Assembly: GCA_043228905.1 (NCBI GenBank)
Contig: JBHGNT010000004.1
Location: 9,858,001-9,922,000, forward strand
Direction of reading: 5' to 3'
DNA: 64,000 nt
Source: Azolla caroliniana
Lineage: Eukaryota; Plantae; Polypodiophyta
The position numbers were made by a program, and so were the translations under genes. Below the pieces are notes generated by a model that did no database searches, had not been told where the DNA came from, and saw nothing but the letters and a program-made list of their open reading frames with translations. Positions 11,301 through 58,009 of this stretch are shown one piece after another; position 1 is the stretch's first letter, and every line of letters starts with the position of its first letter.

Positions 11301-13800
11301 ATATTCTCAGAGTTTGGTGAGAACTAGCCGGATGTGGTGTGTGTGCTCCTCCAAGTTGGAAGAAAAAACTAGGATGTCGTCAAGGTAGATGACCACGAAA
11401 TGATCGAGATACTCTCGAAAAATATCATTCATCATGTGCTGGAAAACGGTCGGAGCATTGGTAAGGCCGAAAGGCATCACTTTTTACTTGAAATGTCCAT
11501 AGCGCGTCTGAAAAGCCGTTTTCCACTCATCCCCAGGCTTAATGCGCACCAAATTGTAGGCGCCCCGAAGGTCAATTTTGGAGAAGATATGCCCCGTTCA
11601 GAGTCGATCGAGGAGCGCTGGAATTAAGGGCAGGGGGTAACGATTACGTACTGTAACTTTGTTGAGACCCCGATAATCCACACATAAGCTAAGGAGCCGT
11701 CCTTTTTTTTTACAAATAAGATTGGTGCCCCAACCAGTGGTGCCCCAACCAGTGATTTGGAGGGTTGAATGAAGCCCTTTGCAAGATTCTCAGCCAAATA
11801 TGTGTGGAGAGCCTCAAGTTTGGGTTCGGATAACCCATAGATAGGACCGAATGGGGGATGCTCGCCAGGTTGGAGTTCGATTAGGCAATTGTAGGGACGA
11901 TGAGCTTGTAACCGATTGGCATTCAACTTTTCGAAGATGTCGGAAAAGTCGTTATATCGGATGGGTAAATTGGTGACAAGAACAGTGACATTTCCCGACA
12001 CAACGGCCAGTGTAGCGGCCAAACCGGACTCGACCGTAACAGAATTAAGGGAGTGTCGTGACCGAGTAGGAATTGGCGTTCTTGGAAAAGTAATGGAATG
12101 GCTACACCAATCCACCGTCAGATTGTGTGTCTCCAACCAAGATAGCCCCAACACAATCGGATTTCGGGGAGTCGCGATGAGGTAGAAAGTCAGTTCCTCC
12201 TTTTGTGCCCCAATTTGAAGTACCAACGGGATAGTGGCTTTGGTAACCGCCCCCTACGAGAGAACCTGGCCGTCAATCGCTTCAACGGATATGGGTTGTG
12301 ATGTGCGGACAATGGGGATATTATGTGTGCATACAAAAGATTTATCAATAAAGCAAGTAGATGCTCCGGAGTCGAGCAAGGCATGATAATGTATTGAAGT
12401 CGAACCAAAACAAAGACTTACTTGCAAAGAAAACCCTCCTAATGGCGGTACGGACTTGTAGGAGCATGAGAAGGTGAGTAACGGGAAGCGTCCAGCGGCA
12501 TGGCTCCTACTGCAGCCGGACTTGGTCATTTTCCTATTGTCGAGGAACCTCCGCAAGACGTGCACGATGGAATTCGTGTCGAGGGCCTCGCACAAGACAA
12601 TGGCGGATGACATGGCCAGGGTTGCCACAATAGAGACAAAGTCCATTGTCCCAACGATGTTGGCGTTGGGCTTCAGTTAGTGGTTGGAACCGAGCATGGT
12701 CGATCTCCATCGGGGTATGGGACTCGACCTCCATTGTGGTATGGGTTTCACTGACTGATGGTAAGGTTGGCGTGGGCAACAAGTAGGGCCTGGCGATTGC
12801 TGCGTTCCGAGAAGAAGCCAGAGATCCACGAGTCCCCCGTTCTTCATGACGAAGTTCAAAAAGACAATTGTCACACTGGACAGCTTGGGAGATTACTTAA
12901 GACAACGATGTGGGCTCTAGGAAGTTTAAGAGAAGAGTCTTGACATCATTTCGGAGACCGCGACGGAAATGGTCGCGTAGGGCTTGGTCATCCCAACTAA
13001 CATCGCAGGCAATCTGGCGGAACTTTGAGCCGTAGATCGAGGCAGGACGTGAGCCTTGTTGGACAGAATAAAGCTTTGTGAGTGTTGTTCGTCACCGATC
13101 TGTCTCGCCAAATGTCGCTTCGAGCTCCTCAATGAAAGCGGTGAAGTCCTCCAAGAGAGGGGATGAGGTCTCGATCAAGGGTGCAAACCACGCTTGCGCT
13201 GGCCCAGAGAGAAGTGTGCCGACAAGCCCAACCCGAGAAAAGTCGCTAGCATACCGTTGGGGTTGTAATCGGATGATAAGCCGAATTTGGTTGATGAAGC
13301 CGCGAAGATACGCCCTCATGCCGTTGAATTTGTCAGGTAGGCTGATGGTTGGTTCGAGGACATATGGATGAGAAGAGGACGTGGTCGGGTTAGGTGTCGA
13401 CGGTGGTTGTGACTCGGCGGCTACTGGATTTCTTCAAGTGCCAGATTGCAACTCTCGTAATGATTCCTGAAGGATTTCATTCTCTAACTGAAGTTGTTGC
13501 AAGGTTGCCATGATTTGGTTTAGGTTGTCGATGGAGTCAGACATTGTAGCAAGAAAAGGAAGGTGAACAAATTGTCACGGACAAGTATAATAGAGTAGAA
13601 CAAAGACAATACTAGAGAACAAGAGAAAGTAAAAGAACAAGAACTCAACTTATAGAACCTGTAACTTGTTTTGTTCACCTTAATTAGAATCAAGGTGCAC
13701 ATGAGTATTTATACAAGAAGGTAGGGCTATGTAAGCTAGCAAGAAATAAAGTATGCATGAGGATGCATGCACGCTAGAAAATGAGAATACATGCAAGCTA
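8400..13800 (-). mobile_element. Family B chromovirus, near full length, degenerate (3' LTR 8400-8772; 5' LTR 13573-~13800 truncated)
   Basis: Both LTRs share sequence. PPT agagggaggataa next to 8772. Gag from ATG 13544 with CLYCGNPGHVIRHC; protease LLDSGA; RT; RH ETDASD; INT; many stops and frameshifts. Confidence 0.92.
10149..10603 (-). mobile_element. Solo LTR (455 bp) nested in family B pol
   Basis: Flanked by 5-bp TSD ACTGA (10144-10148 and 10604-10608). Minus strand starts TGTTACGGG and carries TATAAATA. Confidence 0.8.
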
Positions 13801-14870
13801 AAGTATGCTTGACTTTAGATTGAGAGAGATTAAGATTGAACTCTTGACTTTACATTTGAAGAACAAGATTGATACATCAATTGGATATCAAATTTCTTAC
13901 TTTTAATTTCTTAATTAATACATCAATTGGATAACGAAATTTCTTCTTAATATTAATTTTGATATAAAGTACAAAGCTCCCTTTGATATTTTTCATCCAC
14001 CCTTTTATAGATGCTCCCATGCATATGATGCATGCAAGGGTACAAGACATGCATACAATACATGGAATGCATGTGATGCATGTTTGTCATTTGGCGCTCA
14101 TGCATCACATGTCACTCAATCGAGCTCTAATATGAGAATTTACATGTAAAGCTATAATGATAAAAATATAATCTCTAAAGAAATGACTTCGCTTAATGGT
14201 AAGCCTATTGTTTCCTATCTTGGAGGTGCAAAGTTTGAGTTTTGCTTACATCTTTTTCTTTTATGCACAAAATACTATTAGGCTTTTGGACCAAATATCT
14301 TTAAGACACCATGCACCGTGATCAACTGACCCGACGAATCCGTCCGATTTACATCTGTTTGGTCCGGCCCAGTCCGCATCCTGATTTCGTTTGGTCCTCA
14401 TCCCTAGTCGCTTGCCGGTAACCGGCCGGTCACTACTTGTCGATCGCTAGTTGCCGTCGGTTTTGGTTGGCTAAAATCTTTTACAAGTAGCTAGGCCACA
14501 CCTACTTATCCAACTAGCTTAGTTCAAGTCACCTTGAACTCTCTATGCTCCACACATAAACACAAAGATAATAGTTTTTGCTCTGCCTTATATATGGCGA
14601 GATCCTTATTTGTCCTATCTATGTGGGATATCTCACAGTTTTATCTTTCTCTTTTCCTTTGCAAACTTCCTACCCACATAACTTGAGACTTAGATGTCTG
14701 TTTCTTATGTAGTAAAGTGCATTCGAAAGCTCTTAAAGACCTCCATCTTTTTGTACTAAGATATTAAACTATTTTAAATAGTATTTTGACTATTATTGTT
14801 TTATATGATTCATACTTGATTTCGTATGTTTTATGCGATTTTCACACCATTGCAGAAAATCTTCACGACA

Positions 14871-17800
14871 CTAGAAATATCATAGAAGAGTCAGAGCCTT
14901 TTAATATTGTCCTAGATAGTTTAGCGTGTGTAGTATCATTTAATATAATTAGTATCCCAAAACATCCCATTATTTTGGGATTACCATGGTTCGAATTACA
15001 TAACCCAAACATAGATTGGAGAACAAGAGAAATCCGGTATCGACAACCCCGAGGATCTACTCATAAGATTGCAACCATTTCGTTACATCAGTTGCGTGAG
15101 GAAGGACGCAAGGAAGAAATGTTTCTCTTCACAGTATTAGTAAAACCCTCCAACACCACTAAACAGGAGTCTAGCGTTCAACTTCCAGAGAAGTATCGTC
15201 ATTATGCCGAGGTGTTCAATAAAGTACAAGCCAATATGCTTCCTCACTATCAACCGTATGATTGCCCCATCGATTTACAACCGGGAAAAGAGCCACCATG
15301 GGGACCGATCTACAATTTTTCACCAATCGAGCTAGATGTCCTTCGAGCCGATATAGAGAAGAATTTGGCAAATGGTTTCATTCGACATTCAAAATCTTCA
15401 TCCGACGCACCCATTTTCTTCGTCAAGAAAAAGGATGGATCACTTCGTCTCGTCGTAGATTATCGTGGCTTAAATAAGGTTACCATCAGGAATAGGTACA
15501 GACTTCCCCTTATCTCAAGTCTTTTAGAACAGATCAATGGGGCAAGGTTCTTCACAAAGATCAACTTATGAGGAGCATATAACCTCATACGGATCCGACC
15601 AGGAGATGAATGGAAGACCGCGTTTCTCACCAGATATGGGTAGTTCGAGTATACGGTCATGCCATTAGGCCTCACTAATGCGCCAACAGTCTTCTAGCAC
15701 ATGGCAAATGATATATTCCGAGATCTCTTGGATGTTTGTTTATTCATCTATTTGGATGATCTACTGGTTTATTTGAAGACCCAAAAAGAGCATGATTCTC
15801 ATGTACTGTTAGTACTAAAATGACTTCGAGAACATGGTCTTTATGCAAAGTTGGAAAAATGTAGTTTCGAGTGCAACCAGGTAGAATTTATGGGCTATGT
15901 CATTTCCTCAGAAGGCATCTCCATGGATCCGGCTAAGCTCAAAACGGTGGTAGAGTGGCAGATTTCGCGTTCATTGCAAGATGTGCAATGCTTTTTAGGC
16001 TTTGCCAATTTCTACCACAAGTTTATACATGATTACTCAAAGCTTGTTCTGCCTCTCACACAACTCACCAAGAAGGGACAATCGTTTGTTTGGTCTGAAG
16101 AAGCAGACATGGCTTTTGAGGGTCTTAAGAAGGCATTTACATCAGCTCCTATTCTGGCTCATGTTGATCCGGAAAAACTATTCATCATCGAAGCAAACGC
16201 GTTGGATTTCGTGTTGGGTAGCATTTTGTCACAACAAGGCGATGATGAAAAGCTCCATCCTATGGCTTTCCACTCACGCAAGTTTGACGCCGCCGAAATC
16301 AACTATGAAATTCATGATAAGGAGCTATTAGCAATAGTGGACTCTTTTACGCAACGCAGGCATTTTCTAGAGGGATCCTCTCATCAAGTCACAGTATTCA
16401 GTTATCACAAAAACCTTGCCTACTTTTAGAGTGTTCGTGTGTTAAATCGACGTCAAGCTCGGTAGACCCAATTCCTCACGTGTTTCGACTTCAAAATTAC
16501 ATATCGTCCGGGGAAGCACCAAGGGAAGGCAGATGCATTATCACGGCGTTCGTATCTAGCACCGCGTCTCAGCGAGCCAGCTTTCGATAACCAAAAGCAA
16601 GTAATCCTAGGACCAGCACGACTACAAGTAACACAGGTCTTCGGAATGCCCTTGGATTCCCACGTTATCTATACCATACGTGAGGACTTGAAGACAGATG
16701 CTTTCTCCCAAGCCACTCTAGCACAGTCTCAACCATCTTGTTCACAGTCGCAACAACCAGGTACAGATTATCGACAATTCGAATGTCATGAAGGATTACT
16801 ATTCTTTAAGAAACTGTTGTATGTTCCTAATGGTTCTTGTCGCCTTCGAGTAGTCCAAAACTGTCATGACACATATACATATGGGTATTTTGGTAGTACT
16901 AAAACATTAGATGTAGTACAACGATTATTCTAGTGGCCCCATATGCGACAATTTGTCGAAGATTTTGTTCGGACTTGTGATAAATGTTGCAAAGAAAAAA
17001 TGCCAAGGCATCATCCATATGGTTTATTAGAACCATTACCAATTCCAAGCAAGTCGTGGCAATCCATTGCCCTAGATTTCATCACAGATCTTCCGGTCTC
17101 TAAGGGATTCGATGCTATATTAACAATAGTAGATCGATATACGAAGATGGCCCATTTTTTGTCATGTACTAAGGAAATCTCTAGTGAGGAAACCATCGAA
17201 ACTGTCATGCGTGAAGTATGTCAGCATCATGGCCTTCCCGATAGTATCATCAACGACTATGGACCCCAGTTCGTCTCGATCTTTTGGAAGCATCTCTTTA
17301 AAATGCTCAAGATCACTTGTAAGCTCTCCTCCGACTACCACCCGCAAACAAATGGCCAAGCAGAATGAACAAATCAAACGATGGAACAGTATCTTCAATG
17401 CTTTCTAAGCTATCATCAAGATGACTGGGCAGATATTCTCCACTTCACTGAATTTGCGTATAATAACTCTGTCCACTCATCAACAAAGGTTACGCCTTAT
17501 ACGGGTTGTCACCCTCGGTGGTGTGTATTTGAAACCCCAGAGTTATCCACAAATCCTTGCGCAGAGGATCGTTTGGAGCAGTTACGCAAGATACAAGCGA
17601 ATTTATCTACTCATCTATAGCAAGCTCAACAAACACACAAGGTTTACACGAATCGTCATTGGCTTCCATCCAGTTTTAACATTGGAGATCAGGTATGGCT
17701 ACTTCAACGACACATCAAGACTACTTGCCCATGCGAGAAGTTGGATTATCGGCAATTAATGATGTCACTTTTCGTCTCGATCTACCTCCACAACTTCGGA

Positions 17801-18423
17801 TACATTCGGTGTTTCATAGTTCTCTCCTCGAACCCTATCAAGACAGCACCATGCCAGGTCGTATTAAACAACCTCGACCCCCTATTGAACTTGAAGATGG
17901 ACCTGAGTACGAGGTTGTCCCCATCCTCAATTCCAAGATTGTTCGCAACAAGCTGTACTATATAGTCTATTGGCTAGGATATAGTCCCAGCGAGCATACT
18001 TGGGAACCAATATAGAATGTCACCAATGCTCATGCTCTTCTTGAAGACTTCGATTGTGAATATCTAGACAAACCGGGTCCTCAATCCAAAACGATTCGTG
18101 ACACTCGTCGTTTTAAAAGGGGCATAGTTTCATGATATGGCAAGACTCGAACCCATGACCTTACGTTACATGGGTCGAGCTCTTGACCATTAGACTATTT
18201 GTTGTAATACAAAAAGTATTATTTTCATTCAAGTTTTACTATAGAAAATTGATGTATATTCCAAATTTCTCTAGAACATTCTAGAAACTTCAGGAGTACT
18301 CCTAAGAACACTATAAAAGGAGGCACAAAGCATTATTTCGAACCAAATCGGTTCAACACTAGTGTTAAGCCTCCTAGCTACTATTGTATATTCTCTTAAC
18401 ATAATATATATATTTTGTTATCA

Positions 18424-18460
<37 letters not shown>

Positions 18461-18599
18461 CACTCTCTCAATCACTCTTTCCATCTCTCGAGAGTTCTAC
18501 ACCTCCCTTGGTACTAATCCTCATCTTTTAGTACTAATTCCTAATGTGTCTTAGTATTGTTGCTGACAGTACTTCTCTGTCTTAGTACTGCTCCTGACA
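14871..18599 (+). mobile_element. Family A chromovirus 3' part: degenerate pol (PR-RT-RH-INT-chromodomain), PPT and 3' LTR (18128-18599)
   Basis: Collinear with intact pol with multiple stops; chromodomain EYEVVPILNSKIVRNKLYY; PPT aaaaggggcatag. Confidence 0.93.
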
Positions 18600-21500
18600 A
18601 TAGCATTACAAAGGAGGACAATCAACACCTTATGAAGGAGGAGGGTGCTTTATATAAGGTCACCCTCTCTCTTCATTAACTCTACTACAACAACCACTCT
18701 CTCTTGGGGAATGTGAAGAATCATTAGTCATGGGGAATATGGAACTCATTAGTTATGTGTCATAGAATATGATTCTATGAGACATAGTCAATGTGTAGAG
18801 AGTAGTGGTGTGACTTTTGACCTTTGAGTGCTCATAGATTCTCAAAGGGTGTGTTCACACACAAGGCTAGGTTGAGCTAGATTCTTAACACGCCCCCTCA
18901 AGCTCAACTCGGGTCGGTTCCTCTTGTGGTATGTTCGTTTCGGTTAGTATTCTGTTCGGACGATATCTAGTGTCCGCTTCAGCTGGTACCTGGTACGGAT
19001 GGTATCCAGTTGTCTCTTGTACTCCCCCTCTAGCTTGGCAAGTCGGGGATCGTCAATCCAAGGTCTGACATGAATTGCCAAAGTTTATCGTCTCCTAAGG
19101 CTTTGGTGAAGATGTCGGTTGTCTGAAGATGCATGCTGATGTGGTGAAGGTCTACATCGCATGCCTGAATGCACTCTCAAATGAAGTGATAGTGCACTTC
19201 GATATGCTTCGTGCGTGCATGGAACACCGAGTTCCAAGCCAAATAAATAATGCTCATGTTGTCACAGTAGAGGGGAGTCAGATCGTGGATGGGAACACTC
19301 AAATCCTTCAACATCCTCTTGAGCCATACGGCTTCCATGCAGCCATAGTTGCACCCCTATATTTGGCCTTTGTGCTTGAAAGTGCAATAGTCGGCTCCTT
19401 CTTGTTACTCCATGAAATCTGGAGAAAACAAATACGGAGGTCGATCGTCGATCGACTCTTTAGCTGGCCCAGTTGGCATCAATGTACCCTTCAAGTCGAA
19501 TTGGTTGGCCGATTCGTAGAGAATACCACAATCCATTGTGCCACTCACGTATTGTAATACTAGCTTAGCGTAATCCAAGTGACTATCTCGTGGTTTTTGC
19601 ATGAATTGCCTAAGGAAACCAACCGGGTAGCTAAGGTTAGGTCGAGTGATTGTGAGATAGATGAGGCTCCCGATCAGTTGTCGATACTAATTAGGCCCGC
19701 ATTCTTCGGTGCCGGAGTCGGCATCAAGTTTGAGATTTCAATCGAGAGGGGTTGCCATAGGTTTACACTCAGTCATCCCGAACTTGTATAACAAGTTAAG
19801 GATGTAGTGTCGTTGAGAGATCATAATGCCGGCTGGAGTTTGAATTACCTCGATGCCAAGGAAGTAATGCAGCTCCTTCATGTTCGTCATCTCGAACTTG
19901 CTAGAGAGGAGGGACTTGACCTTGTTGATGTCGACTAGACTTTCACCTCCAATGACCAAATAATCCACATATAGAATGATGACAATCGGACTTCCCGAAT
20001 CACTTCTTGTGTATATGGAGTTGTCGGATTTTGACATTGAGAAGCTGATTCGATGAAGATATTGTGTTATCTTCGAATGCCAAGCATGTGGTGCTTGCTT
20101 AAGGCCATAGAGTAGCTTCTTATTCGACACACTACTTTCGGATGGGTGCTCGATTCAAAGCTAGGTGGTTGTACCATGTACACCTCCTCTTCTAATTCGC
20201 CTTGAAGAAAGGCATTCTTGACATCCATTTGATGGAGGTGCCACCCTTTCGCTGCAGCAAGTGCTATCACGGTCCGCACAGTTGTCTTCTTTGCCACTGG
20301 GGCAAAGGTCTATTCATAGTCGACTCCATGTGTTTGTGCGTATCCTTTTGCTACAAGTCGAGCTTTGTAGCGGTTCACGGAACCGTCGGCATGATACTTC
20401 AATTTCTATATCCATCTTCAGTCGATTGCCTTCTTGTGCGGTGAGTGGGGGACGAGATCTCATGTTTCATTTTTGCATAGTGCCTACATCTCCTCATTCA
20501 TTGCTTCGACCCATGGTGGATCCTAGGCTGCTTCGGAGAAAATTTCCGGTTCTCGAATTGCTACCACCTTCATCATAAAGGCATAGTGGTATGCCATATA
20601 GTCGTTGTAGCTGAATCGGCTAATTGGATTCTTCTCACGGCTCGAGTGACGGAGTTTCTGATTTGCCGATGTGAGTGCTTTCTTAACTCCGGGTGACCTA
20701 AGAAGAGGCACATCAAAGCCACCGAACTCACTATCGAGTGAGAGTGAGTTGATTCGTTGTCGTCGAATTGATCGTCTTCATATTCCGGCATTTTGGCCTT
20801 GCCTTTGTCCATCTTCGTACTTGGCCGAGATGTGCTTTGGTCACTCGGGGTCTCTTGTGGCCCACTAATCCTTGTCGTAATTGGATTTTCTTCGAACATA
20901 TGCCTCAGTTGATCACCGTCTTCTATGTTGTCAAGGTCATTCATAAATGTTTCGGAAGGATTTAGCTCGGGTTCGTACCATGCTGTTGATTCTTCAAAGA
21001 CGACGTCTCTACTTACACGAACCTTCCGAGTAGAGGGGTTATAACACTTGTACCCCTTTTGCTCCAATGAGTATCCTATGAGGATACACTTCTCCGACTT
21101 ATGATCGAGCTTCTGTTGCTTTTCGTCGGGAATGTGCGCATATGCAAGTGAACTGAATATTCTTACATGAGATAGATCTGGCTACTTCCCATAGTACTTT
21201 TCGTGTGGGGTAACCTCATGCACACCGTATGTTGTGCACCGGTTCATGAGGTAGACGGCAGTATTTGTTGCTTCGGCCCAGGCCCAATATGACTTTGGCA
21301 TATTCTTTTCGTTCATCATGACCCATGCTACTTTGAGGGTGTTTCGATTTTTGTGTTCGGCCACTCCGTTTTGTTCAAGTGTACTCACCGAATTCTTGCT
21401 TTCCAAAGAAAAGCCGAAAATTTGTCAGAGAAGTACTCTTTTCCGCCATCCGACCAAAGACATCGTACATGCTGGCCGGTTGTCTTTTCGACTTCGCTTT

Positions 21501-23602
21501 TGAATTTCTGGAAGTGTCAGAACACTTCTCTCTTTTGCCGCATGGGGTAGATCCAGGTGAAGTCGTTGATAAAGGCCATGTTGTCCGCTGAATGTAGCCG
21601 TTTGAGTTGGTTCCCATACATCAGAATAAATTACGTCGAGTACACCTTTTCTCAAGTTCCTCTCTTTTGGGAACGAGTGTCAGTGTTGCCTGCCAAATTG
21701 GCAGGCTGCACATACGCCTTCAATCTCCTTCTCTTTGAAGCTAGGGAGCTCGATGACGACTCCTCTCGATTGCATTGCCTTGAGTTTATTGAGATTGATC
21801 TGGTCAATCCTCTTGTGGCACAACTCTATGTCTGTGTTGACTTTGGTGCCTTTTGCCAACATGGCTGATTTCATCTCCTGCGAATCGAGAATGAACATTC
21901 GACCTTTCCTTCGACCGTGAGCGATGAGTCGACCCTCTTTTTCGATGAAGCAACTACCTTGGTTAAATCGAACTTCCATGCCTTGCTCCACCATTTGGCC
22001 GACTGAAGATCAAATTCTTCATGATGGTCGGTACATGCAAGACATTCTTAATGTAAGTTTGGTTACCTTCTTTGTCGATTGGAACATTGCCGATGTGCCG
22101 AATCGGATGAGTAGTGTCATCTCCGGTTTCCACATAGCCGGGTCCATCCAGCTCTCGAAGGTCTCGGAACCATTCTTGATGAGACATCATATGGTTCGAA
22201 GAATTCGAGTCGACAAACCATACATCTTCTGGACTAGATGAACTTGTCGAAGTAGAGGCTGACATAGAATATGCTCTATGTCTCATCACGAACATTCCAC
22301 CATGGTCGTTATAGTCAAAATTTGTGGCGTAGTTGGTTAGTTGTTGGCATGTGGAATCTGACTCACGCTTCTTCTTTCGGCACTCTTCTTCGTGGTGGCC
22401 GATTTTGCCGCAATATCTGCATTCAATAGAGGTTTGTTGGCTCGGGCCGGAATGGAAGTTACCCCTTCTTCCGAAGGTTCCTCATTGGTTTCCGTCTTGT
22501 TGCCAAATTTAGGAGTTGTTTTCATATGTCAAACCTCGTTCGCCTCTTCCTTGGTTGAATCGGCCTCTTGCTCGGCCACATCCTCTTCCTCCATTCGAAT
22601 GTGTGTAGAGCAGGTGGCCTTTCGAGGCATTGCTCCTTGTTCAAACATGGTTTTCTTCAACCAACAACATGGATTGAAGATCGAAGAAAGAGGGAGAATT
22701 CTCTTATGCTAGTATGGCGGTCCTCATCGTGCCAAACCGTGGTGCAAGGCCTCCGAGGCATATTTGCACCATCTCATCATCCTCCACATTCACGCTTATT
22801 GAGCCAATGAATCACAAAGCTCCTTGATCTTCAAGGTGTAGCTTGTGATGGACCTGTCTCTTTATTGAATGTTGTTCAACTCTTGGCGAAGTTGACGCTT
22901 TTCATGCGATTGTGTTGGCCGCAAAAATCTTCCTAAGATTCTCCCATGCTTCCTTCGGCGTCTCGGCTTCTCGAATGTAGCCAAGCATGTGGTCATGAAC
23001 ACTTGTCGCCAAGAAATACATTACTCGACTCACCATTGCTCCCATGTTGAGTAGTCAGTGTCCTTAGGGTCAGGTTGATTTTCTTGTGCTCCTTTGATGT
23101 AGCTCCAATAGCCTTGGCCGACACAACACACACGGATGGGCTAGATCGAGCTATCAAACCACTCTGATACCATGTAAAGAATCGGGCATGATTTTGTGCA
23201 GTGGAAGAGATGTGTTGTGTGTGTGTGTGTGTGGAAAGAGGAGAAGAGGAGAGAAACACAAGATAGACAAGAAAAAATAAAAAATGAAGTACTCAAGATT
23301 GTATATTAACAAGGAGAATATGAATTAAAAAATGTAGCATTACAAGGGAGGACAATCGACACCTTATGAAGAAGGAGGAGGGTGCTTTATATAAGGTCAC
23401 CCTCTCTCTTCATTAACTCCACTACAACAACCACTCTCTCTTGGGGAATGTGAAGACTCCTTAGTTATGTGTCATAGAATATGATTCTATGACACATAGG
23501 TAATGTGTAGAGAGTAGTGGTGTGACTTTTGACCTTTGAGTGCTCATAGATTCTCAAAGGGTGTGTTCACACACAAGGCTAGGTTGAGCTTTATTCTCAA
23601 CA
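18600..23602 (-). mobile_element. Ty1/copia element, degenerate (5' LTR 23173-23602; 3' LTR partial 18600-18890)
   Basis: Matching LTRs; PBS TGGTATCAGAG (tRNA-iMet) at 23161-23172; PPT cttgagggggcg; protease WFVDS, INT, RT ([23 protein letters not shown]), RH in copia order. Confidence 0.93.
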
Positions 23603-25218
23603 GTTGCTAATGCTTCAATGATCTCCTTGAGTAGAGAGTCCCCATGTAGCATGCATGTTGCAAAGATATGGAATTGATCTGCCTTTAAGAAACATTGGGA
23701 TTGTTGAGCATAGTCATCATCCCTTAGCTAGAGCTCAAATTCCAACCGTCGAGAAAGTTTCATCACCCTCCATGTGTTATTTCCTAGGAAAAAATAATAT
23801 TTTGAAGTCATAATCAACTAAAAAAGTGAACCGAGGAGCATGGCCCCGACTCAATGTTCAAGCGGTTGAGAAGTAGGGTGAATTCTTGTGATGTCAGAGA
23901 TTTAATGGAAGTGTCAAAATCCCCTTTCCAATTTATATTCACTCAATGTTCAGTAGGAATTCCCATCTTGTATGATAAGATGGTATTGGAGTTCCTTGGG
24001 TAGTGCAAATAGTGACATAATTGGCATGTGTTGAATGCCTTCATTTTTTTATACTCAAGGTGGGGTTCAAAAATACGTTTGACATTTAAAAGGCACAATC
24101 TCTAGGTAATTCTCCTTGGGGAGAATTCTAGGAGGTTGACATGAGGAGTTTGGGTTGTATAGATTTGCAATGCATTGTATATTGTCTCCGATATTTGCAT
24201 TGGTCGTAGTCCCTACATTTGATGATATAGGTCCATTATGAGATATACAAAGATGAGGAATGTATAAGGGGCACTCTATGCCTTTTGTGGTGGGTCAATA
24301 TGATATTCTATCCCTATTCATTTAATACATTAGACTAACCTTGTGCATCTACACATGGTTATATGATTTTAAAGGGCAACACTTACTATTTTTATAGTAC
24401 GAGAAGCTTATCCTAAAGAATAGAGAAAATAAAGCCATTTTGTGTCTTATTACATAATATTTTTTACTGACAAACTAGGTTGACATATTTTATTGAACCA
24501 AACTATGATTTACCAATTGGTACATAATGTCATTTGCATTAAAGCTACAAGAGTTTATCAGAATGTTGACTCTACATTTCAAGTTAGAAGCCAAAATGAT
24601 GATGTCATGCCAGTTGTGACTTAAGAGTTTAGATGACAATGGTTTGCGAGAAATAGATGTAGGAGTAAATTCATGAGAAACTATGCAAAGTTTCAAGAAG
24701 ATATCCCAAGGTTTTCTGTTATAATCTCCAACAATCGCATTAACATCGTATCTATTTGCAATGACTTTTGCAATGAGCCACACGGATGGGATATTCATTC
24801 GTCCATGACTCGAAATATCATAATCAGAATCCTGATCGTGGAGACCACACACACAACAGAGATGGTACATTGTTTTGGGGTTTGGGATCGTGAAGGTCAG
24901 TCAGCCTACTTATTTATTATCCTATGGATCGTACACAAATGCATATGTATGTACAACGTGAAGTAATGTGCTGAAATGATGTAGAAATGTAGTACATAAC
25001 AATATGGTTGGGGTTTGAAGTACATACATTGATACATAGCAACCACTCAACAACACGATGATGAGGAGGAAGGATATTATTTATTGATTGGAGGTCAAAG
25101 TGCTACTATTATTTTACACACAAACACACACATATAAATACATATACATGTTGCGGCTCCTTTGCAACAAACACGCAAATACCTCCAGACATACACACAC
25201 ACACACACACACACAACA

Positions 25219-26418
25219 ATGGCTTCTGCTGCTCATGCACTCATGTCTCTCATCAGAATGGTGATGGTGGCTTGCTTCTTCTTCGTCGTCTGTGTGCAAG
25301 CCCATCCTCAGCATGGCTTCTGCACCAGGACGCATGGCACCGCCAAGGGCTGCCCCACACCCCCAACCTTCGACGCCATCAACCTCACGGCCTTCGCGGG
25401 CAGTTGGTTCCAGATCGGTATCAGCGCCAGGTCCCAGTTCAGGGACCAACCCGGCTCCGTTTGCGCCCGCGCCAAGTACGAGCTAAGGGGCCACTCCCCT
25501 TCACACCAAACCCTCTTCTCCGTCCTCAACAGTGCCCTCTCCATCCTCCGCCCCGCTGGTGTGGCTGACATCTATTATGCCGGCACCACCTCCTTCGGCG
25601 TCTGTAACTCTGCCCGAAGCTCGTGCCACGTCATCGGCCACATCAATGACCATGCTCTTGAATTGCTCAAGGATCACCCCGCATTGTTGAAGAACGTGAC
25701 GGACGCCGCTAAAATTGGAGAGGCAGCACTAGATTCTGCGGCCGGGAGGATCGGCCACATTCAAGGCTATCTCAACCAGTTGAGTCAAGCCAATTACACG
25801 GTAAGTCTAGCAAACACCACAGAGAAGATGGAGGTAAATGCAGAGAAGCTTAAGGCGGAGGACGCTGGAGCTTTGCGGCTTGCAGGGAAGCTTCTGGAGG
25901 ATGCGGGGAGGAAGGTCGAGGCAATGCAGTCAATGAAGGCGGTGGGGAAGAAGATAAGGCTAGCAGGGAAAGAGCTGGTGAAGAGCGCGAAGAATATCGA
26001 GAAGGGTGCGATACAGCTGCGGAAGACGGCACGGTCGCTGGCCAAAGGCAACGGTAGATCGATCACGGTAGCACAAGGCGCCAAAGCGTACAAGGTGGAA
26101 GGCGAGGGAGTGCAGATTAAGGGAGGCAAGCTACAGGTGAAAGTGAAGGGGGAAGTGATTATGAAGCCATATTGGGTGCTGGCAGTGGACAGCCACAACG
26201 AAGCCGCGCTCGTGTATTCGTGCGTGAATGACAGCGATGGCAACATAGCGGAGAAATCCATCTTCATCATCGCCCGGTCGTGGAAACCCGACCCTTCGGT
26301 AGTGGAGGGTTTCCTGTCACTGGCCCAGTCATATGGCATCTCTTCAGACTGCGAGGATTCATTCTCCATGACCGTCCAGCGCGGTGGCTCTTGTGGACTT
26401 CCTCCCCATTCCATGTAA
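25219..26418 (+). CDS. Secreted ApoD-like lipocalin (399 aa) with large internal helical insertion; intronless
   Basis: Hydrophobic N-terminal signal ending VQA. Lipocalin motifs GCPTPP..FAGSWFQI, CARAKY, PYWVLAVD..ALVYSC, IFIIAR and a C-terminal Cys. Uninterrupted GC-rich ORF; ATG in aacaATGG context after a (CA)n leader. Confidence 0.85.
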   Translation: MASAAHALMSLIRMVMVACFFFVVCVQAHPQHGFCTRTHGTAKGCPTPPTFDAINLTAFAGSWFQIGISARSQFRDQPGSVCARAKYELRGHSPSHQTLFSVLNSALSILRPAGVADIYYAGTTSFGVCNSARSSCHVIGHINDHALELLKDHPALLKNVTDAAKIGEAALDSAAGRIGHIQGYLNQLSQANYTVSLANTTEKMEVNAEKLKAEDAGALRLAGKLLEDAGRKVEAMQSMKAVGKKIRLAGKELVKSAKNIEKGAIQLRKTARSLAKGNGRSITVAQGAKAYKVEGEGVQIKGGKLQVKVKGEVIMKPYWVLAVDSHNEAALVYSCVNDSDGNIAEKSIFIIARSWKPDPSVVEGFLSLAQSYGISSDCEDSFSMTVQRGGSCGLPPHSM

Positions 26419-27735
26419 TATAGAAGGAAGAAGAAGGAATGAAGTTCTCCTTCTCCTCATGGCATTCAATAATAATAATAATAATAATGATGATGGTGAC
26501 CGGCTCCTTTGTTCCTTTTTGAACACTTGTATAAGCTCAATGCGATTCCTAACTCATAACCTCAATAGCTTCATAAACCACTACAGACATATTACCTACT
26601 ATTAGTCTCCGCATCCCATCCCACACTGCTTTTGTATCAAGAAATGTCATGTTTCCTTTGCTATCCCTGGGCGTTATCATCTCTAACTTTTATTGTTCTG
26701 TTATTGGGATTCTTGGAGACGCAACCAGGTATCTAGATTGAGAAACAACGAGATATAGATCCCTGAAAGACGCAGCAGCCACTGCATCAAAACGCCTAAT
26801 TCCACATTTGTTATGCTGGATTCTCATTAATCACTGTGCGCGTCCATTGAAATAACTGCTTCCTTTTACACAAGCTCATCAATCTTCTGTAATTCGTTAA
26901 ATTCATGTCACGGTCCATGCACGGAGCTAATCTCCTAAAGAAATTCTTAAGGACAGGTACAATATCTCCTTGACATTGTTGCTCATCCGGATATTAGTCA
27001 ACTTTGGGATATAAGTCATGAATCTAGACTACTTGGTCGAATCTGATATCTAATGGATCGGTACCACAGTCCTTGATGCAAGGGGATTTACGGTTAGTTC
27101 TTGTGACAAGACATAGAAGAAGACCGCCGAAGAAGAAGGGTTAGGGTTTGGAATTTGATATATAGGTTGGCTGCTAAGGATTTGTAGAGTATGAAGAGAA
27201 CGAAGAGAGGAATTAGGGTTTGATGGGATCCAAGGTACTAAAAGGCTTTTAATGTGGACAGTATAAGGAAGGGAAATTTTGACCATTACTATTAGGTTGT
27301 GGTGAAGTAGGAAGGCTTGCTTCGCAATGCAAAGTCCACACGAAAATAAATACATACAACTTACACGTTACTAAAAATAATTGTATTTAAGTTGTATCTA
27401 TAATAACAGCCAAGCAAAACATTCTTACATTCTTTACGAGTGTATCTTTGAGCCACCTTTTTAGCGAGCCTAGGCCGTCATGCATGCACGTGTTGTACCT
27501 TTGTGCCACCTTTTTAGTAACCGTTGTCCTTCATGGAGTCGAGCCCGTGTGCCGATGTGAGACCAGAGAGATGGAAGGCGGCAGTGAGGAGTCCATGCAT
27601 TAGTTCATAACCAAGCCCACCCAAATGTGAACTAATGCAAACCCACCCAAATGGGTATCTCTATATAAACTATAAATTAACCAGGAAGGAACAAGCAAGA
27701 CAAGCTAGTTTTGATTCTCTCTACATGCATTTCAC

Positions 27736-28440
27736 ATATGGGCCAATATTAAAGAGGTGAATGAAGCAAAATTTTAACTTATGGGCCAAGGAAAATTTCA
27801 ACCCACGACCTCCACCTTTAGGAACATGACGATAATCACGTAGCTTACATTCAAAAGCCTTCTTGAAATACAATTTGCCCCGTGACAAGCTAGTATATTA
27901 TTTATATTGGCCAATATTAAAGAGGTGAATGAAGCAAAATTTTAACTTATGGGCCAAGGAAAATTTCAACCCACGACCTCCACCTTTAGCAAGACAAGCT
28001 AGTATATTATTTATATGGGCCAATATTAAAGAGGTGAATGAAGCAAAATTTTAACTTATGGGCCAAGGAAATTTTCAACCCACGACCTCCACCTTTAGGA
28101 ACATGACGATAATCACGTAGCTTACATTCAAAAGCCTTCTTGAAATACAATTTGCCCCGTGACAAGCTAGTATATTATTTATATTGGCCAATATTAAAGA
28201 GGTGAATGAAGCAAAATTTTAACTTATGGGCCAAGGAAAATTTCAACCCACGACCTCCACCTTTAGCAAGACAAGCTAGTATATTATTTATATGGGCCAA
28301 TATTAAAGAGGTGAATGAAGCAAAATTTTAACTTATGGGCCAAGGAAAATTTCAACCCACGACCTCCACCTTTAGGAACATGACGATAATCACGTAGCTT
28401 ACATTCAAAAGCCTTCTTGAAATACAATTTGCCCCGTGAC
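27736..28440. repeat. Higher-order tandem repeat: 277-bp period made of alternating 109- and 168-bp related subunits
   Basis: gacaagctag recurs at 27884, 27993, 28161 and 28270, with a truncated gaca at 28438; copies are near identical. Confidence 0.95.
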
Positions 28441-28966
28441 ATGTTACATGTGCAACACTTAGTGCACATTTAGTAGCCTCCCTAAAATAGAATTCTCCAT
28501 ATGGCACACTACATGTGCACCACATGGCACATATATTAGAGCATCCCGTCACTATAAAAGGAGTATAGTTATGGGGGATATCGTGAGATAAATTGAGATA
28601 TATAGGAAGAGAATGAGGAAGAAGAAAAAGGGTGGAGATGATAAAAATGATTTTCATGATAAGAAAAGGGCAAAGTGTTATGCCACTAGTTTATGGGGGG
28701 GTCTTGAAACGCACACAAAACATGAGTGAGATACACAAAGAGGATTTATATTTAATCCAAGAGAAACGCTTACAATATTCCCAAATTGAGACAAACCAAA
28801 AATGGTGGTTTGGGTGAGTCGTGACTAAGTCAAGGCGAATCGAGACTCAACTGAGAAAAGTCGAGACAACTCCCAAAACTATGTTGAGGGACAAGAGAAA
28901 GGTTCAATATTTACAATGGGTGAATGAAAATGAGGAGAAGCTCCTCTAATATATAGGCTAAGGGAT

Positions 28967-29080
28967 GGTTATTGGGCTACCCTTTGGCTAGTCGTTAGTC
29001 CAAGATGTGGTTGTTGTGCTACCCTTTGCCTAGCCGTTAGTCCAAGAGGTGGCTATTGGGCTACCCTTTGGCTAGTCCTT
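28967..29080. repeat. 42-bp tandem repeat (~2.7 copies) within a probable LTR relic (~28700-29294)
   Basis: Unit ggttattgggctaccctttggctagtcgttagtccaagatgt. Confidence 0.75.
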
Positions 29081-29649
29081 GGGAATGTCACGTTGAGACT
29101 GCCCCGATTGCGTTTTGGACTGCTTGAGACTATCCCAACTCTACTTGGGACTGCTTGATAGTTGGGACTGATTGGGTTAGTCCCAATCTAAACCCTACTT
29201 GGGTCCATCCCAACTCTGTTTGGGACTGCTTGCTTGTGGGGATTGCTTGGTTGCTCCTCCAACCCAAGGTGGCTTAATGTTAGAGTGCCCATCACTGATA
29301 AGTGTTGAATTGACTCTCATCTCCCATCAAATAGAGACAATGTTTTAGTGTAGTTTATGCTAGATGCTTGGATTTTCGAGTGAGATAATATAATTGTCGT
29401 ATATTTTAAATACATAAAAGGTTGACTCTATGCAAGCAAATCCACATTTTCTATTTGGTGTTTGTAGGCCTCCTATATATGCCCTCGTGGTCCACTACCC
29501 TATGGTAAATTGTGTGTTGGTAAAGCATAGGTGCTCAACTCCCATAATTTTCAAACATAAGTTGTATTTTGGTCATTATATGGAGATTTCAAGAGCTCAC
29601 TTGTTTGGATAAAAATAGCTTCGGAGTCACCAATGCCATTTGTTTTTGC

Positions 29650-32600
29650 TAGGGATCGGTAATGGCTCAACTCAAGCCTAAACCGGTTCAATGGTTTAGC
29701 GGCTTGTCCCGACTGAATTTAGGCTTGAGCTTGTTTAAACGGTTTGAGCTCGGCTCGGCTCGGCTTGAGGCCTGCCGAACGGGCTCAAACTGATTAAGCC
29801 GATAATTAATTAAGTCATACATAAACGTTACAGAGTTAGAACAATTAAAAATTTTAAGTTAGAACTTAGAAAGCTGAAGCAAAGAGTCGATTGTTCACTG
29901 TTGAAACTTGAGTGTCCATTGTCGACACAGACATTACACAGTGAGAGGGAGAGAGAGGGAAAGGGAGAGCGAGTGAGAGAGAGGAAGAGGGAGAGGGAGA
30001 CTTCAGACGATGAGGACCTCCTGCAACCTGCACCAGAGCACAGTACACGGCTTCAGGCTTCTACTGACCAGCGACCCTCAGGTACATGCTCATTGCTAAT
30101 ATACATGATGTTGAGGCTTTTTTTTTCTCATGAATCAGAAAATTCAGAATTGTGCTTGCATGTATACAATTTTAAGCCACGGATTATATGCATGTTGATG
30201 TGATGGGGCCAAATGCTTCCTTTGTCATCAAACCAAGATGTCATTCATGCTATTGAAAGCTTTGCGTGGCCTATTAAATGATTAATTGGATAAATATGTC
30301 ACTGTAAATATATATGCTCTCTGGTAACTAATTCAATTACAACATTTTCGCACTACACATTGACATTGATTCTTCCTTAAATCCATGTTTCAAAACATCA
30401 GTAAAGTGGTTATAAACTTCAATTAAATTGGTTACAACAGATTCTGATCCATTCAATTAATAATATACAACCATTAAATGCTTGTACATAAGGTATGTGC
30501 AAAGAGGCAAGTTGCACAAATTGGGCTTCTTGTGTTTCACAAATTGGGCTTCTTGTGTTGGGTTGTTGTGCATTGTGATTGGGTTTCACGCGTTGCCCCT
30601 TCGTGTAGTGGTCTCGGGCTCGTGTGTAGCCTTTGTAATTCAATTACATCACCTTTCCTAAGAATCCATGTTAATTAACATTATTAAAGTGTTTCTTAAG
30701 TTTGTGAGTTACAAGTAAGTTAGATCAATCCAACTTTATTATACAAGTAATTAACATCGTTAAAGCTACATTGCCTCTACTTTATACAATAAGATCCACA
30801 TGCCCTTGTCAGCTTCCCTCCCAAACTTCTTAGAATTGAGAAGCTTATTCTTTTCAGCTCTCAACATATAAAGTGTTTGACTGCAAGTGGGGGTCTTGAG
30901 TGTCGAGTGTTGGTAATCAAACTTTACGGACAATTCTAAGATGCAACAACGTTAACTACTACACATAGGAAAAGCTTATAAAGGAGTTTTAACTCAAAAA
31001 TAATTTCATTTATTGTTCAAAATTTTTAGTCTCGTTTTTATTAATTATTCTATGTTTTTTAATTGATGTATAAGTATATACATAAACATGGAAGATAGTC
31101 AAGCTACAACTCATTTATCTTCACCCACAGAGGCAACATCAATATCAGTCCCTAGATTCAAAACAACCCAAGAAAAAGAAGTTCATGGACCGAGCAACAC
31201 ATGGTCGCCATCAAGGAAGCAGATGCATCTAAACTTCGAAGTGGTTATTGTCACTTGTTATGGTCAAGCTCTACATCTATAGGTTCCATTGCCAAGCATT
31301 GATTAGATAAGCATAATATTAATATCACATCACAACCACAAGCTTCTAGCAATGTTCTTGGCTAAACTCAAATAGATGCATCTACATCTACATTAGCTAT
31401 ATAGTTCTTGTCTAAACTCAATATCTCGTACTCTAGAGAAGAAATTTAATAGTACTATTGTTAGATATATAGTTTCATCAACGCCACCTCATGCACATAT
31501 TGAGTCTTCTAGTGTTAAGAGATTAATGCATTATGTCTTGCCTAGTTATCTTCAACTTAAATTAGCTTGTACACTTAAAATATTAGTTTTACGAATGTAT
31601 GTTGTTCTTTGCCATTTAGTTATTACTTATTTGTCCTCACAAAGTTTTAGATATGTTATAACATATGATGGGTGTTAAAATAATAGTTTGAAAGGATTTT
31701 ATCCCATGACATTACATTGGGGCTCTTTAGCGCTGACTAGTGTGCTTTTATACTTTCTAGATGTCTTTCTAAGAGATGGGGTAGGAAAACGTGTTGGAAA
31801 AGCTTTACTCTCATGTCTAAAGTCTTCACGTATTCTATCTACAACTTCGGATGGTGCTAGTGAATCTCTAGTTGCATCAAAGGAATTAGCTAGGTTAGTT
31901 TTTAGTCATCATGGACAAGACATTTTACAATCATCACATATGTTAAGATGCATGGTGCATACCAACAAACTTGGTGTAAAGTCTCTCTGCATTAGAAGTT
32001 ATTAATCCTACTATAAAGTTAAGGAAAACATTGCATTCTATACGCACAATTAAAGTGAGTAGAGCTATATTTAAAAAATATTCAAAAACCATGCATGAGA
32101 ATGGGGAACAAGAACCATCGTGTCTCGGTTCCATTACTAAATGGAATTCAACTCTAATGCTCAATATGCAGCTACTTTGTGTACATTGAAAGTGGAAATT
32201 ACAAGGGTGGTTTGGCTTTGCTTGGGGAAGCCATCCTTATGAGTAAATCTTTTTACTGTGGGGCAGAGATGGATTATGTTAAAGGATGTTGAAGCAATTC
32301 TAGGGAGTGACAAGGAGGATAGATTATGTTTCATTTACTTTTCAAATTTGGGGAGTGGTTTTCTTTTTTTCTATTTTTTCTGGGGAGGATGAGTGGAGGC
32401 AATTGGTAGCATGTTGTTCGTATAGCTAACTATGAGCAGGTTGAAGAAGGATGGTGTTTCACGATGCAACTTCTTTGTGTTGAGACAAAGTAATGGAAGA
32501 TGCTAGAAGGCCGCCATATGACCCTCATCTTGTGTGCTTTACCTATGAGGAAAGAGGGACTTCCGGTTCGGGTTATGGCTTCTAAAAATGCACTAATTTC

Positions 32601-34963
32601 AAGATATTACCAGCAGGTGGCACTGTAAGAGTGTTAATAGGCACAGAAACTCGCAATGGAATCATGAGTAACAGGCTGCTAGAAGACAATATTGAGCTTG
32701 GAAAGGCTTTGTTGGACATATGCTATATGTGGATAGGTGGATCATGGCTCAACAGAGATTTTTTTTGTGGTTTACTTGGTGAGGTATAAAAAATATTTTC
32801 AACTTTGATTTCGAGATACAAGGATGTGGGATGCACTGATTTTGGCCTTGAGAAGTTTGCCAAGGTGGCAGTGAAAGAGTGATTGACATGCATAGAAAAT
32901 CACATTGAAATTATGAGTAAGAGGCTGTTAGAAGACAATATTGAGCTTGGGAATGCTTTGTTGGATATGTATGCTATATGTGCCAATCTTGAAAAAAAAC
33001 ACAAAAAACAGTTGATGATATTTCAGTTCGAGATGTAAATGATATTCTTGCTAAAAAACATGTTATCTTGTGAAATGCATCTATTACAAGATATGTTAAG
33101 CATGGATCAGCGGAGATTGGTACTGTAAAGGTGGAGCAATAATCGAAGCATGAGCACAGTTTGAGAATTTATTGCTGGTGGAAAGAAATGGGTGATCCTT
33201 AGGATGTTCGCGAAAGTAATGCTAATAGGAAGGATCAAGGTTTTCATTTCCAAGAAGGAGTGGATGTGGCTGAACGATTTAATTTAAAGAATGTTCTGCA
33301 TGCTATGGTTCTCCGAAGTTGTGTGAGCATACAAGTGGTTCATTGTCTTCATGTATACAAGGTAGTTTCAAGAGAATGAAGGGAATATAGAATCAGGTTG
33401 GAAGCTTGTTTACTCAGGATATACAAGACGTTGTGAAGCAATGGTTGAAGCTTCGATTGGACCTACGGTTTTAAGATGATAGCATACATGTTGGAGCGAT
33501 CACGAATATTTATACTTGCAAAGTCTTATGTAATGAAGGCAAGTTGAAGGTCGCCATTTATCACATATGATTCGAGGAGATATGATATAACGGCTTGCCA
33601 TGTTATTGGGATATATTGAGTAGGATAAGAATGAGGATGCTATACAACTCTATCCTTGAAGGCCTATGTAAGGTGTCTAATTATTATGATGACATTTTCT
33701 GGTATGATGAAAGTAGGCGGCAAGATCCATGGCTAGTCATTGGGATAGTCCTTTTCCCTCTTCTTTTTCATCTCTTTTGTAGTTTGTACTTGATAGGTCT
33801 TTTAAAACTAATGGAAGGATATTTTGTTTTAAAAAAAAAAAAAGTATCAACAATCCCTAAAAGTTAAGAGATGTCTTGATTTGCACCATAAGTGACAAGG
33901 CCATTGTTGATGACTTTGTTGACCATACACTCTCATAGAAGGTTGGAGTCATATACAAAGTATGGAACAATGTTTGCTTGTGCTTGCTAAAATTTGTAAT
34001 TACTTGAGTGGGTCAAAGTACCCTACCCTCTCACTAGCAGTGCTTGCATTCAACCACTTATTATCACATTGTAATAAGTATATATCTATGGATATGAACT
34101 TGGTTTATTCACTCTCTGAGAAGATTACTCTTCAAGTGCAAAAGGAGGCTAGTACCAAATGCCTACAATATCTAATCAAGTACAAAGAATCCTTGAAATC
34201 TGTTCCATCTCGAATCACAATGTTTCTTGACCCTAGGTAATGTTTTTTAATTGAAATTTTCATTTTTTTAATCGTTTTTTCTTACTAATAATGTCTTATG
34301 TTTAGATGTAGAGTTCCAAAACCAGCAAATCCAATTGAGAGAGACCTCGATATAGAGTTGGTGCAAACTGTTTTAACAACAAAATATCATGATCCTAATG
34401 TCGAAGATTCTCCATCCGAAGATGCTTGTGAAGGATCTCAATTTGAATATTTGGAGTTTTGGGGTATCAACAATGAGAAATCTCATGAATCATCACCTGG
34501 GTCAGAAATTAAAGATTTCTTGAAGCTTCCACGAATCAAGACTACCATAGACCCTCTACATTAGTGGTTTACCAATAGGTTCCATCAGTATTGTTAAACA
34601 AATTTGTTTCTATTGTTGGTAATTAAGAAACACACTGTGACATTATATTTTTTGAAGAGTTAAAACAGATCCACTTTTCCAAGGATGTAGAAAATGACAT
34701 GTGATTATTTGACAATTCTAACTTCATTAATGCCTTCAGAGGAAGCTAACTCCGAAGCTCGTGATAACTTCAAATATAGGCAACAATTGCATTCATGCAC
34801 TTTCAAGGTAGAGATGTGCATACAATCTTGGTTAGATTTACTTGACAATGTAAACATTCTTCTACTTGAATATATTAATGATGCCTGTAATAGTTTAGAT
34901 ATCAATTTAAAAGAGATGATGGCAAAGGATGATCTTATCGAATACTTGTACTTGGACAAGTGA
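29650..34963 (+). mobile_element. Decayed hAT DNA transposon
   Basis: TAGGGAT terminus with GCTCG/GCTTG subterminal repeats. Transposase relics ILSTTSDGAS, RCMVH, KWNST, SGSKYPTLS, FLDPR and the dimerisation-domain-like MTCDYLTILTSLMPSE. Right terminus not found. Confidence 0.8.
32194..33840 (+). pseudogene. Polyadenylated insert with PLS-type PPR gene fragments inside the hAT transposase
   Basis: LLEDNIELGNALLDMYA-type PPR segment present twice (~32664, ~32913); poly(A) at 33831-33843; AAAGT on both sides. Confidence 0.6.
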
Positions 34964-42112: not shown

Positions 42113-42179
42113 AAGTTTTGGGTTACCTCCACCATAGGGCCGATGAGGGAGATCTTCATTCTGCTTCTGAAGCAAAACC

Positions 42180-57719: not shown

Positions 57720-57842
57720 TGTCATAACTAGACTCGAACCCATAACCTTTTGTTACACGGGTCGAGACTTTACCATTAGGTTATGAATTGTAATTTGAAG
57801 GATATTATTTTCATTTAGGTTTTATTGGGAAATTGATGTATA

Positions 57843-57902: not shown

Positions 57903-58009
57903 GGAGGCGCAAGGCATTAGTTCGAACCAAATCGGTTCAACGCCAGTCTTAAGCCTTCTAACTACTGTTGTATATCTTCCTTCATATAATACATATATCT
58001 TTCGCATCA

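Follow-up and report, generated by a model that had tools for sequence, protein, structure and literature searches.

A plant lipocalin of likely secreted type whose barrel is predicted to be interrupted by a four-helix bundle, from Azolla caroliniana and its streptophyte relatives

The window analysed here, a 64,000-nucleotide stretch of the Azolla caroliniana genome, contains an intronless gene whose product (P0001) is, very probably, a lipocalin of the apolipoprotein D (ApoD) type that is split in two by a helical domain. The architecture recurs from streptophyte algae to gymnosperms, and the family to which the protein belongs is ancient, widespread and, apparently, undescribed. The reading of its function that we prefer, with a probability of roughly 0.55, is that of a secreted carrier of a small hydrophobic ligand in the wall space, in which the predicted bundle would serve as a lid and a docking arm. 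The features of the gene and of the segment that contains it are as follows.

12457..26682, no strand assigned: duplicated segment, mostly LTR-retrotransposon remnants plus the gene, 98-99% identical (blastn) to the copies at 9.33 Mb and 9.54 Mb of chromosome C4; about 10 kb upstream of each copy were compared, and the true left end may lie further out
25133..25139, + strand: TATA-like box (TATAAAT), 80 bases 5' of the ATG; putative promoter element
25219..26418, + strand: coding sequence of P0001, 399 codons, intronless, no internal stop
25219..25302, + strand: likely signal peptide, residues 1-28, including C19 and C25, from hydropathy; putative cleavage site at its end
25303..25344, + strand: N-terminal arm with a short helix (34-39) and the family motif F34-C35, from the model and the family alignment
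25345..25548, + strand: N-terminal part of the barrel, residues 43-110, with C45, G61-S-W63 (GxW), strands A-C and C82, from phmmer, the model and fold matches
25549..26067, + strand: predicted inserted four-helix bundle, residues 111-283, from the model, the alignment and pN/pS
26068..26394, + strand: C-terminal part of the barrel, residues 284-392, with strands D-H, C335, R353, helix 359-371, C378 and C392, from Pfam, phmmer and the model

A (CA)n run is read in the sequence between the TATA-like box and the ATG, directly 5' of the start codon, and by eye no poly(A) tract, which a retroposed copy might carry, was seen 3' of the stop. The N-terminus is hydrophobic, with a Kyte-Doolittle 19-residue peak of 2.56 at residue 8, and is likely to be a secretory signal peptide cleaved after A28, in agreement with an earlier reading made from the sequence alone. 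The five N-glycosylation sequons which that sequence-only reading had counted were all located (N55, N159, N192, N199 and N337), and the protein is likely to be glycosylated; the number of sequons per family member ranges from 1 to 9. An antisense open reading frame of 206 codons over the gene, 25794-26414 on the minus strand, was considered as a second gene product and rejected, as a stop breaks the frame in the paralog L006; it is likely to be a shadow frame.

The lipocalin signal is divided between the two ends of the protein. A phmmer comparison with human ApoD (2hzq) reports two stretches, residues 44-89 and 291-373 (E 7.5e-5), and Pfam Lipocalin_2 matches only the C-terminal half, residues 289-367, at 19.6 bits against a cut-off of 24; profile searches miss the split architecture because each half scores below the cut-off. 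The AlphaFold2 model, built from a 22-row alignment, has a mean pLDDT of 86.8 and a pTM of 0.82, with all five models above 83 pLDDT. In this model three strands (61-69, 80-92, 98-110) precede the insert and five (284-301, 304-309, 316-324, 329-337, 343-352) follow it, succeeded by a helix at 359-371 and, beyond this lipocalin helix, a short last strand. Foldseek ranks 2hzq first, with a TM-score (target) of 0.83 and an rmsd of 2.3 Å; VIA-align gives ApoD a Z-score of 20.8 and an rmsd of 2.4 Å over 158 aligned residues spread across positions 40-396 of the model, followed in rank by crustacyanin, Arabidopsis TIL and Blc. The two halves are thus predicted to join into one complete eight-stranded, ApoD-like barrel with a C-terminal helix, and the whole-chain pTM predicts a fixed orientation of the barrel relative to the bundle. 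The proposal of a split ApoD-type lipocalin with a helical insert, for which failure of the halves to assemble had been named as one ground for refutation, is therefore borne out on the predicted model. As a lead only, a search of the ESM Atlas with the whole protein found lipocalin clusters at 0.84-0.86. The homodimer prediction score of 0.17 (mark 0.32) counts neither for nor against a dimer.

The motifs that we take to be SCR1 (GxW, G61-S-W63) and the arginine of SCR3 (R353) align to ApoD, while the site presumed to be the TDY of SCR2 reads V-D-S at 323-325, with the aspartate alone retained. Nine residues (A85, Y87, V102, N104, V307, Y318, V332, F349 and R353) that we assume, from ApoD, to line the pocket are common to 64-93% of 28 family rows. 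At two lid-loop positions P0001 has Q in place of the K (86%) and E (93%) of the family; together with the long stem branch of its clade described below, this suggests that its ligand or role may differ from that of the family.

The insert (residues 111-283 in the model) takes the place of the hairpin joining strands C and D and consists of four helices of 36-40 residues each, H1 (112-149), H2 (154-189), H3 (197-234) and H4 (237-276). The sequence-only reading was right that a helical insert is present and overstated its length, which is about 173 rather than about 185 residues. In all 12 uninterrupted relatives that were aligned, the same columns hold 0-5 residues. Contigs from four public runs cross both barrel-insert junctions and contain no joint that skips the insert; these are contigs of relatives, recovered with this gene, and the RNA nature of three of the four runs is a guess. 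One contig from another sample (X3 record 17, 25443-26461) covers the entire insert. Comparison with L006 gives a pN/pS of 0.14 for the whole frame, 0.05 for the C-terminal half and 0.19 for the insert (13 synonymous and 8 non-synonymous changes), and among the 54 variant positions listed for the public-run contigs 31 are in the insert, 23 of them synonymous. The insert is coding sequence under constraint. Both the absence of introns, seen in a single frame of 399 codons and in the contigs, and the retention of the insert, seen in the crossed junctions and the pN/pS value, agree with the sequence-only reading. In X1, X2 and X5 there is little or no contig cover of the flanks (14000-33000), whereas the gene is covered, and X6 contributed no contig; this is not read as expression, because the runs were chosen with this gene and the contigs are those of relatives. 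Contigs of the same three runs leave out 115 bases 3' of the stop (26425-26541), a gap whose ends (GG..AA) carry no splice signal and which is probably a length variant in the relatives.

H4 of P0001 holds 12 K/R against 2 D/E, and the hydrophobic moments of H3 and H4 are 0.64 and 0.62; amphipathic helices are expected of any soluble helical bundle. Across the family the net charge of the insert runs from -11 to +10, so that a basic charge is no family trait. The best 19-residue hydropathy within the insert of P0001 is 0.52, with no membrane-spanning hydrophobic stretch or hairpin, and a pore-former of the ClyA/AhlB type was rejected for want of the hydrophobic membrane-inserting hairpin. H3 and H4 are the least conserved parts of the protein (top-residue shares 0.29 and 0.28, against 0.45-0.51 for the barrel halves), and the turn between H2 and H3 (L188, Q190) is conserved in the family. 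VIA-align scores the bundle best against a designed maquette (Z 16.0), ahead of a dystrophin-complex chain (13.7) and a pectin methylesterase inhibitor-type (PMEI) protein (13.5); sarcospan and spectrin repeats are also among the matches, and no Z-score exceeds 16. These matches are generic, at the background level for helical bundles, and point to no specific relative. Folded alone and without an alignment, the insert gives a poor model (pLDDT 66) with a non-helical H1 region and generic matches. Over 22 family members, Pfam reports no insert family in more than 2, PMEI is absent from the list, and the single ApoLp-III match has an E-value of 0.0075. The ESM Atlas returned no usable match with the insert alone, a result that bears neither on novelty nor on absence. 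The profile of the family matches the insert of P0001 weakly (9.8 bits). When each group was left out in turn, the insert profiles beat all 300 shuffles in 16 of 21 rows: all 12 from the fern clade, gymnosperms and mosses, 2 of the 6 from algae, and 2 of the 3 from the P0001 clade. Homology of the insert is thus clear among land plants, and weaker for the algae and for the fast-evolving P0001 clade.

Past the likely cleavage site P0001 has eight cysteines (35, 45, 82, 129, 136, 335, 378 and 392). C45, C82, C335 and C392 are at the ApoD cysteine positions and are present in nearly all family rows, in line with the disulfides C45-C335 and C82-C392 proposed from the sequence; the bonds themselves would be formed as in ApoD. 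The remaining four accompany the insert and are lacking in all 12 uninterrupted rows. Among the 31 inserted rows, C129 and C378 are both present in 25 and both absent in 5, with a gap in 1, and C35 and C136 are both present in 27 and both absent in 1, with gaps in 3. The five algal rows without C129/C378 keep C35/C136 and one row shows the reverse; the sister rows P0029 and P0036 have complementary patterns, and P0044 keeps C35 while the region of C136 is gapped. These co-losses amount to about three independent events, in algae. Residues seven apart on one helix are too distant for a mutual disulfide, and a C129-C136 bond is improbable because the two are so placed on one predicted helix. The likely pairs are C129-C378 and C35-C136. 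The cysteine pair noticed in the insert is thus real, and the suggestion that it is bonded to itself is made improbable by the co-loss with C378 and C35. With the pairing favoured here, H1 would be tied twice to the periphery of the barrel, at the N-terminal arm and at the C-terminal segment, and H2-H4 have no cysteine.

A phmmer search of 1.84 billion representatives returned 55 matches. Split members were found in algae (Chara braunii, Mesotaenium, Closterium), in bryophytes (Marchantia paleacea, Riccia, Calypogeia, and Ceratodon, added by a profile search) and in vascular plants (Selaginella, Diphasiastrum, Ceratopteris, Taxus chinensis, Ginkgo biloba). The insert has the identical position in all 31 aligned split rows and a length of 123-229 residues. 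No angiosperm split member was found among the 24 clusters looked up, which cover 22 of the 55 matches. Among viral contigs, 24 pattern matches contained no relative, and a viral fold library gave only ordinary or unrelated matches. Prokaryote and metagenome scans with P0003, which rely on exact peptides and are insensitive, found 34 loci, none long enough for an insert: these measure 142-179 residues from match to stop, the ordinary lipocalin length. That this might prove an already annotated, widespread family had been foreseen; widespread it is, but not annotated as a family, since the records of its members bear only the labels hypothetical, uncharacterized, unnamed or generic lipocalin. 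In the literature searched, with most subscription journals outside that search, the split form was not found described. Several members have further parts. P0018, P0024 and P0068 (Selaginella, Taxus) carry Pro/Ser-rich N-terminal extensions of about 100 residues, which to us resemble those of wall proteins, and P0027 of Closterium (1321 aa) apparently contains three tandem split-lipocalin units in one predicted protein, with an unrelated-looking domain at its C-terminal end that may be a gene-model fusion.

The phylogeny was calculated on the barrel columns (56 rows, 167 columns), with fragments and most near-duplicates left out and without CHL or chordate ApoD. A branch (91/82), recovered in 93% of the bootstrap trees, separates the 31 inserted rows and one partly inserted Chara-like row from the rest; within this clade Chara and some Closterium-like rows branch off first, then two Zygnematophyceae rows, and then the land plants. 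This clade lies, as a separate branch of an unresolved fork, within a group (97/91) that also contains eight uninterrupted moss-type rows, a euglenid row and an unnamed row, and that is apart both from Blc/TIL and from the animal-type rows. The P0001 clade is on a long stem branch (0.99), and five Azolla paralogs group with Ceratopteris at 100/100. The sequence-only reading had allowed for horizontal transfer or retroposition. An origin by transfer from animals is not supported, as the tree runs from streptophyte algae to land plants and AU tests reject both a grouping of the P0001 clade with three animal-type rows (p 0.0047) and one of all inserted rows with the animal-type rows (p 0.0012); for P0064 and P0048 the label animal-type is our assumption from resemblance. 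The simplest history would be that the insert entered a secreted lipocalin once, in early streptophytes, and was then inherited vertically.

The Azolla genome has at least 12 split-lipocalin genes, a number on which three queries agree. Six are on C4 between 8.72 and 9.88 Mb, five of them 99-100% identical as proteins and one (L006) 96%; the others are one gene without an intron on C11 and five with an intron, of which two are on C13 and one each on C2, C15 and C19. A coding-region intron is absent in 7 of the 12 genes, and the other 5 have one intron inside helix 4, with a GT donor, in phase 0 and past most of the insert. The six C4 copies are recent and make up a fast-evolving lineage with a basic bundle. 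Each is part of a duplicated segment longer than 10 kb (94-99.7% identity); the copies differ by insertions, and some may be uncollapsed haplotypes. At 26682-27328 the flanks of the window copy switch from likeness to L001, L002, L004 and L005 upstream to likeness to L006 (92%) downstream. Since its flanks are shared with different copies, the window copy looks like the product of a real unequal crossing-over, which suggests that it is recombinant. Upstream, the likeness of L006 to the window copy ends about 32 bases 5' of the ATG (L006:1-1468), and L006 may be regulated differently. The five Ceratopteris-like paralogs (L012, L013, L014, L015 and L016) have Y for the tryptophan of GxW, acidic inserts and long or degenerate strands D-F, and their barrels may have lost ligand binding. 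No uninterrupted SLL-like gene (see below for this group) was found in the genome, as a lower bound; the best genome matches of the 205-aa Physcomitrium lipocalin P0090 are the two halves of the split paralog L007, at 42% identity each, and the TIL of the genome is a different gene, on C3.

The window is otherwise dominated by LTR-retrotransposon remnants. A Ty3-type chromodomain LTR retrotransposon lies at 57720-63485; its two terminal repeats of 460 bases are 100% identical and its gag and pol frames are long and open, so that its insertion was very recent. Positions 27736-28441 hold a tandem duplication of 277-base period that is almost perfect (99.5% over 429 bases). The nearest ordinary genes downstream of the lipocalin are frames matching protein phosphatase inhibitor 2 (42171-42602, E 2.6e-13) and MCAfunc (46755-47330, E 1.2e-54).

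Four loops surround the open end of the lipocalin calyx, and the C-D loop is among them. Because the insert arises from this loop and helix 1 appears to be stapled, H1 would sit at the mouth of the pocket and act as a lid on a barrel carrying a small hydrophobic ligand in the wall space. The unstapled, amphipathic helices H2-H4 could then contact a membrane, a lipid surface or a partner protein at the place where the ligand is loaded or released, and the strongly basic H4 of the six-copy lineage would favour anionic surfaces such as acidic lipids, pectin or microbial envelopes. According to PMC8530192, the open-end loops are the suggested contact sites of ApoD with hydrophobic surfaces, and a disulfide with ApoA-II links human ApoD to HDL. 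A bolder version, which we consider a long shot, makes the protein an ancient one-chain plant counterpart of ApoD plus an apolipoprotein, in which the barrel would hold a lipid monomer and H2-H4 would swing open on the stapled H1 to wrap or dock extracellular lipid. If true, such a chain would move cuticle, spore-wall or signalling lipids through the wall, along a lipid route shared by streptophyte algae, seedless plants and gymnosperms and perhaps lost in the flowering plants.

Other readings of the function are each less probable than the secreted carrier. Defence genes are typically amplified and quick to change, and the six copies within 1.2 Mb of C4, the long stem branch and the basic H4 would suit a secreted defence or microbe-managing protein whose bundle binds or disturbs microbial or insect membranes while the barrel targets it or sequesters a nutrient or pigment, heme or a siderophore for instance; the fold matches include a plant lipocalin with bound heme (8wb2, Z 19.0) and a siderocalin. 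However, the insert has no membrane-spanning stretch, the pore-former AhlB is matched in a generic way (Z 11.6), recent evolution is purifying over the whole frame, and the copies arose in transposon-rich segmental duplications, which require no selection, so that we regard a defence role as unlikely. The bundle might instead be a protein-binding module, comparable to PMEI and invertase inhibitors or to a receptor-binding arm, and the whole a ligand-gated inhibitor or signal carrier. PMEI (1xg2_B) aligns to residues 109-275 with an rmsd of 3.4 Å over 125 aligned residues at 10% identity, its compartment is likely the same, and the H2-H3 turn is conserved; the Z-score of 13.5 is nevertheless background for helical bundles, and the low conservation of H3 and H4 fits poorly with a fixed protein partner, which leaves this module decidedly improbable.

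It is highly doubtful that the pocket has become vestigial or is closed off, leaving a structural or adhesive glycoprotein, locked by disulfides, in the wall, the cuticle or the spore coat: the degenerate barrels of the Ceratopteris-like clade, the variable sequons, the proline-rich extensions and the tandem multimer of Closterium would agree with this, but conservation is higher in the barrel halves than in the bundle, and the pN/pS of the C-terminal half is 0.05. Finally, the split might be an artefact, caused by an intron left unspliced, by fusion with a neighbour or by misassembly. The low conservation of the insert and its weak match to the family profile in P0001 are what one would expect of such an error; against it stand the identical position in 31 rows from algae to gymnosperms, the pN/pS of the insert, the contig from another sample that spans it, the confident model, and the fact that the sole intron of the five paralogs lies inside helix 4. 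An artefact is thus hardly credible.

If the architecture is as modelled, the lipocalin barrel tolerates a whole domain in a loop at the rim of its pocket, an arrangement maintained in lineages from streptophyte algae up to gymnosperms, and this loop is a place where nature has grafted a domain onto a widely engineered scaffold. The distribution would change the recent picture in which secreted lipocalins of plants are scarce among vascular plants and have disappeared from seed plants, and it makes the split family a candidate carrier of extracellular lipids or signals in early land plants.

Compared with known lipocalins, P0001 shares with ApoD and sandercyanin (2hzq, 2hzr, 5ez2) the eight-stranded barrel and the C-terminal helix, at an rmsd of 2.3-2.5 Å, and with ApoD also the positions of four cysteines and, in all likelihood, a signal peptide and N-glycosylation. 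ApoD, however, is a single uninterrupted domain, and the AU tests reject a grouping of the split family with the animal type. Plant TIL (8wb2) and bacterial Blc (1qwd) have the same lipocalin fold (Z 19.0 and 18.8) and form a separate branch of the tree, with TIL nested among Blc and, in likely contrast to P0001, without a signal peptide. CHL has a plastid transit peptide, and by hydropathy the N-terminus of P0001 looks secretory; the accessible part of PMC13214078 mentions only a plastid lipocalin in a fern. Bundles of the apolipophorin-III and PMEI types resemble the insert in being amphipathic, up-and-down and of similar size, but the likeness has no sequence support, and the bundle of the split family is embedded in, and likely stapled to, a barrel.

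The sequence-only reading had limited plant lipocalins to TIL, CHL and the VDE/ZEP domains, which no longer holds, as a secreted seedless-plant group, SLL, has already been named (10.1101/2025.03.13.638958). In the available text of that preprint SLL is a third group of plant lipocalins: secreted proteins, mostly with a single Blc-like domain, that are infrequent in vascular plants, have disappeared from seed plants and have no known function; the word 'insertion' is absent from that text, figures and supplements aside, and some of its SLL rows may be split members. The uninterrupted secreted lipocalins of mosses (P0090 and Ceratodon P0069) are probably SLL, P0090 being assigned by elimination, since with 205 aa it is neither the 189-aa TIL nor the 341-aa CHL. 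Like the split family, SLL as represented by these mosses is likely secreted and has the motifs GxWYEIGSTA...ExGxxC, YxxAxVYSC and LxILSRxP; its moss rows lie in the same 97/91 group, on the other side of the unresolved fork from the split rows. The split family differs in the helical insert of the C-D loop and in four extra cysteines, and it occurs in lycophytes, ferns, Taxus and Ginkgo, where SLL is said by the available text to be rare or lost. Judged by that text, which describes SLL as mostly single-domain and limited to charophytes and seedless plants, the split family is a close relative of SLL that is best kept apart from it.
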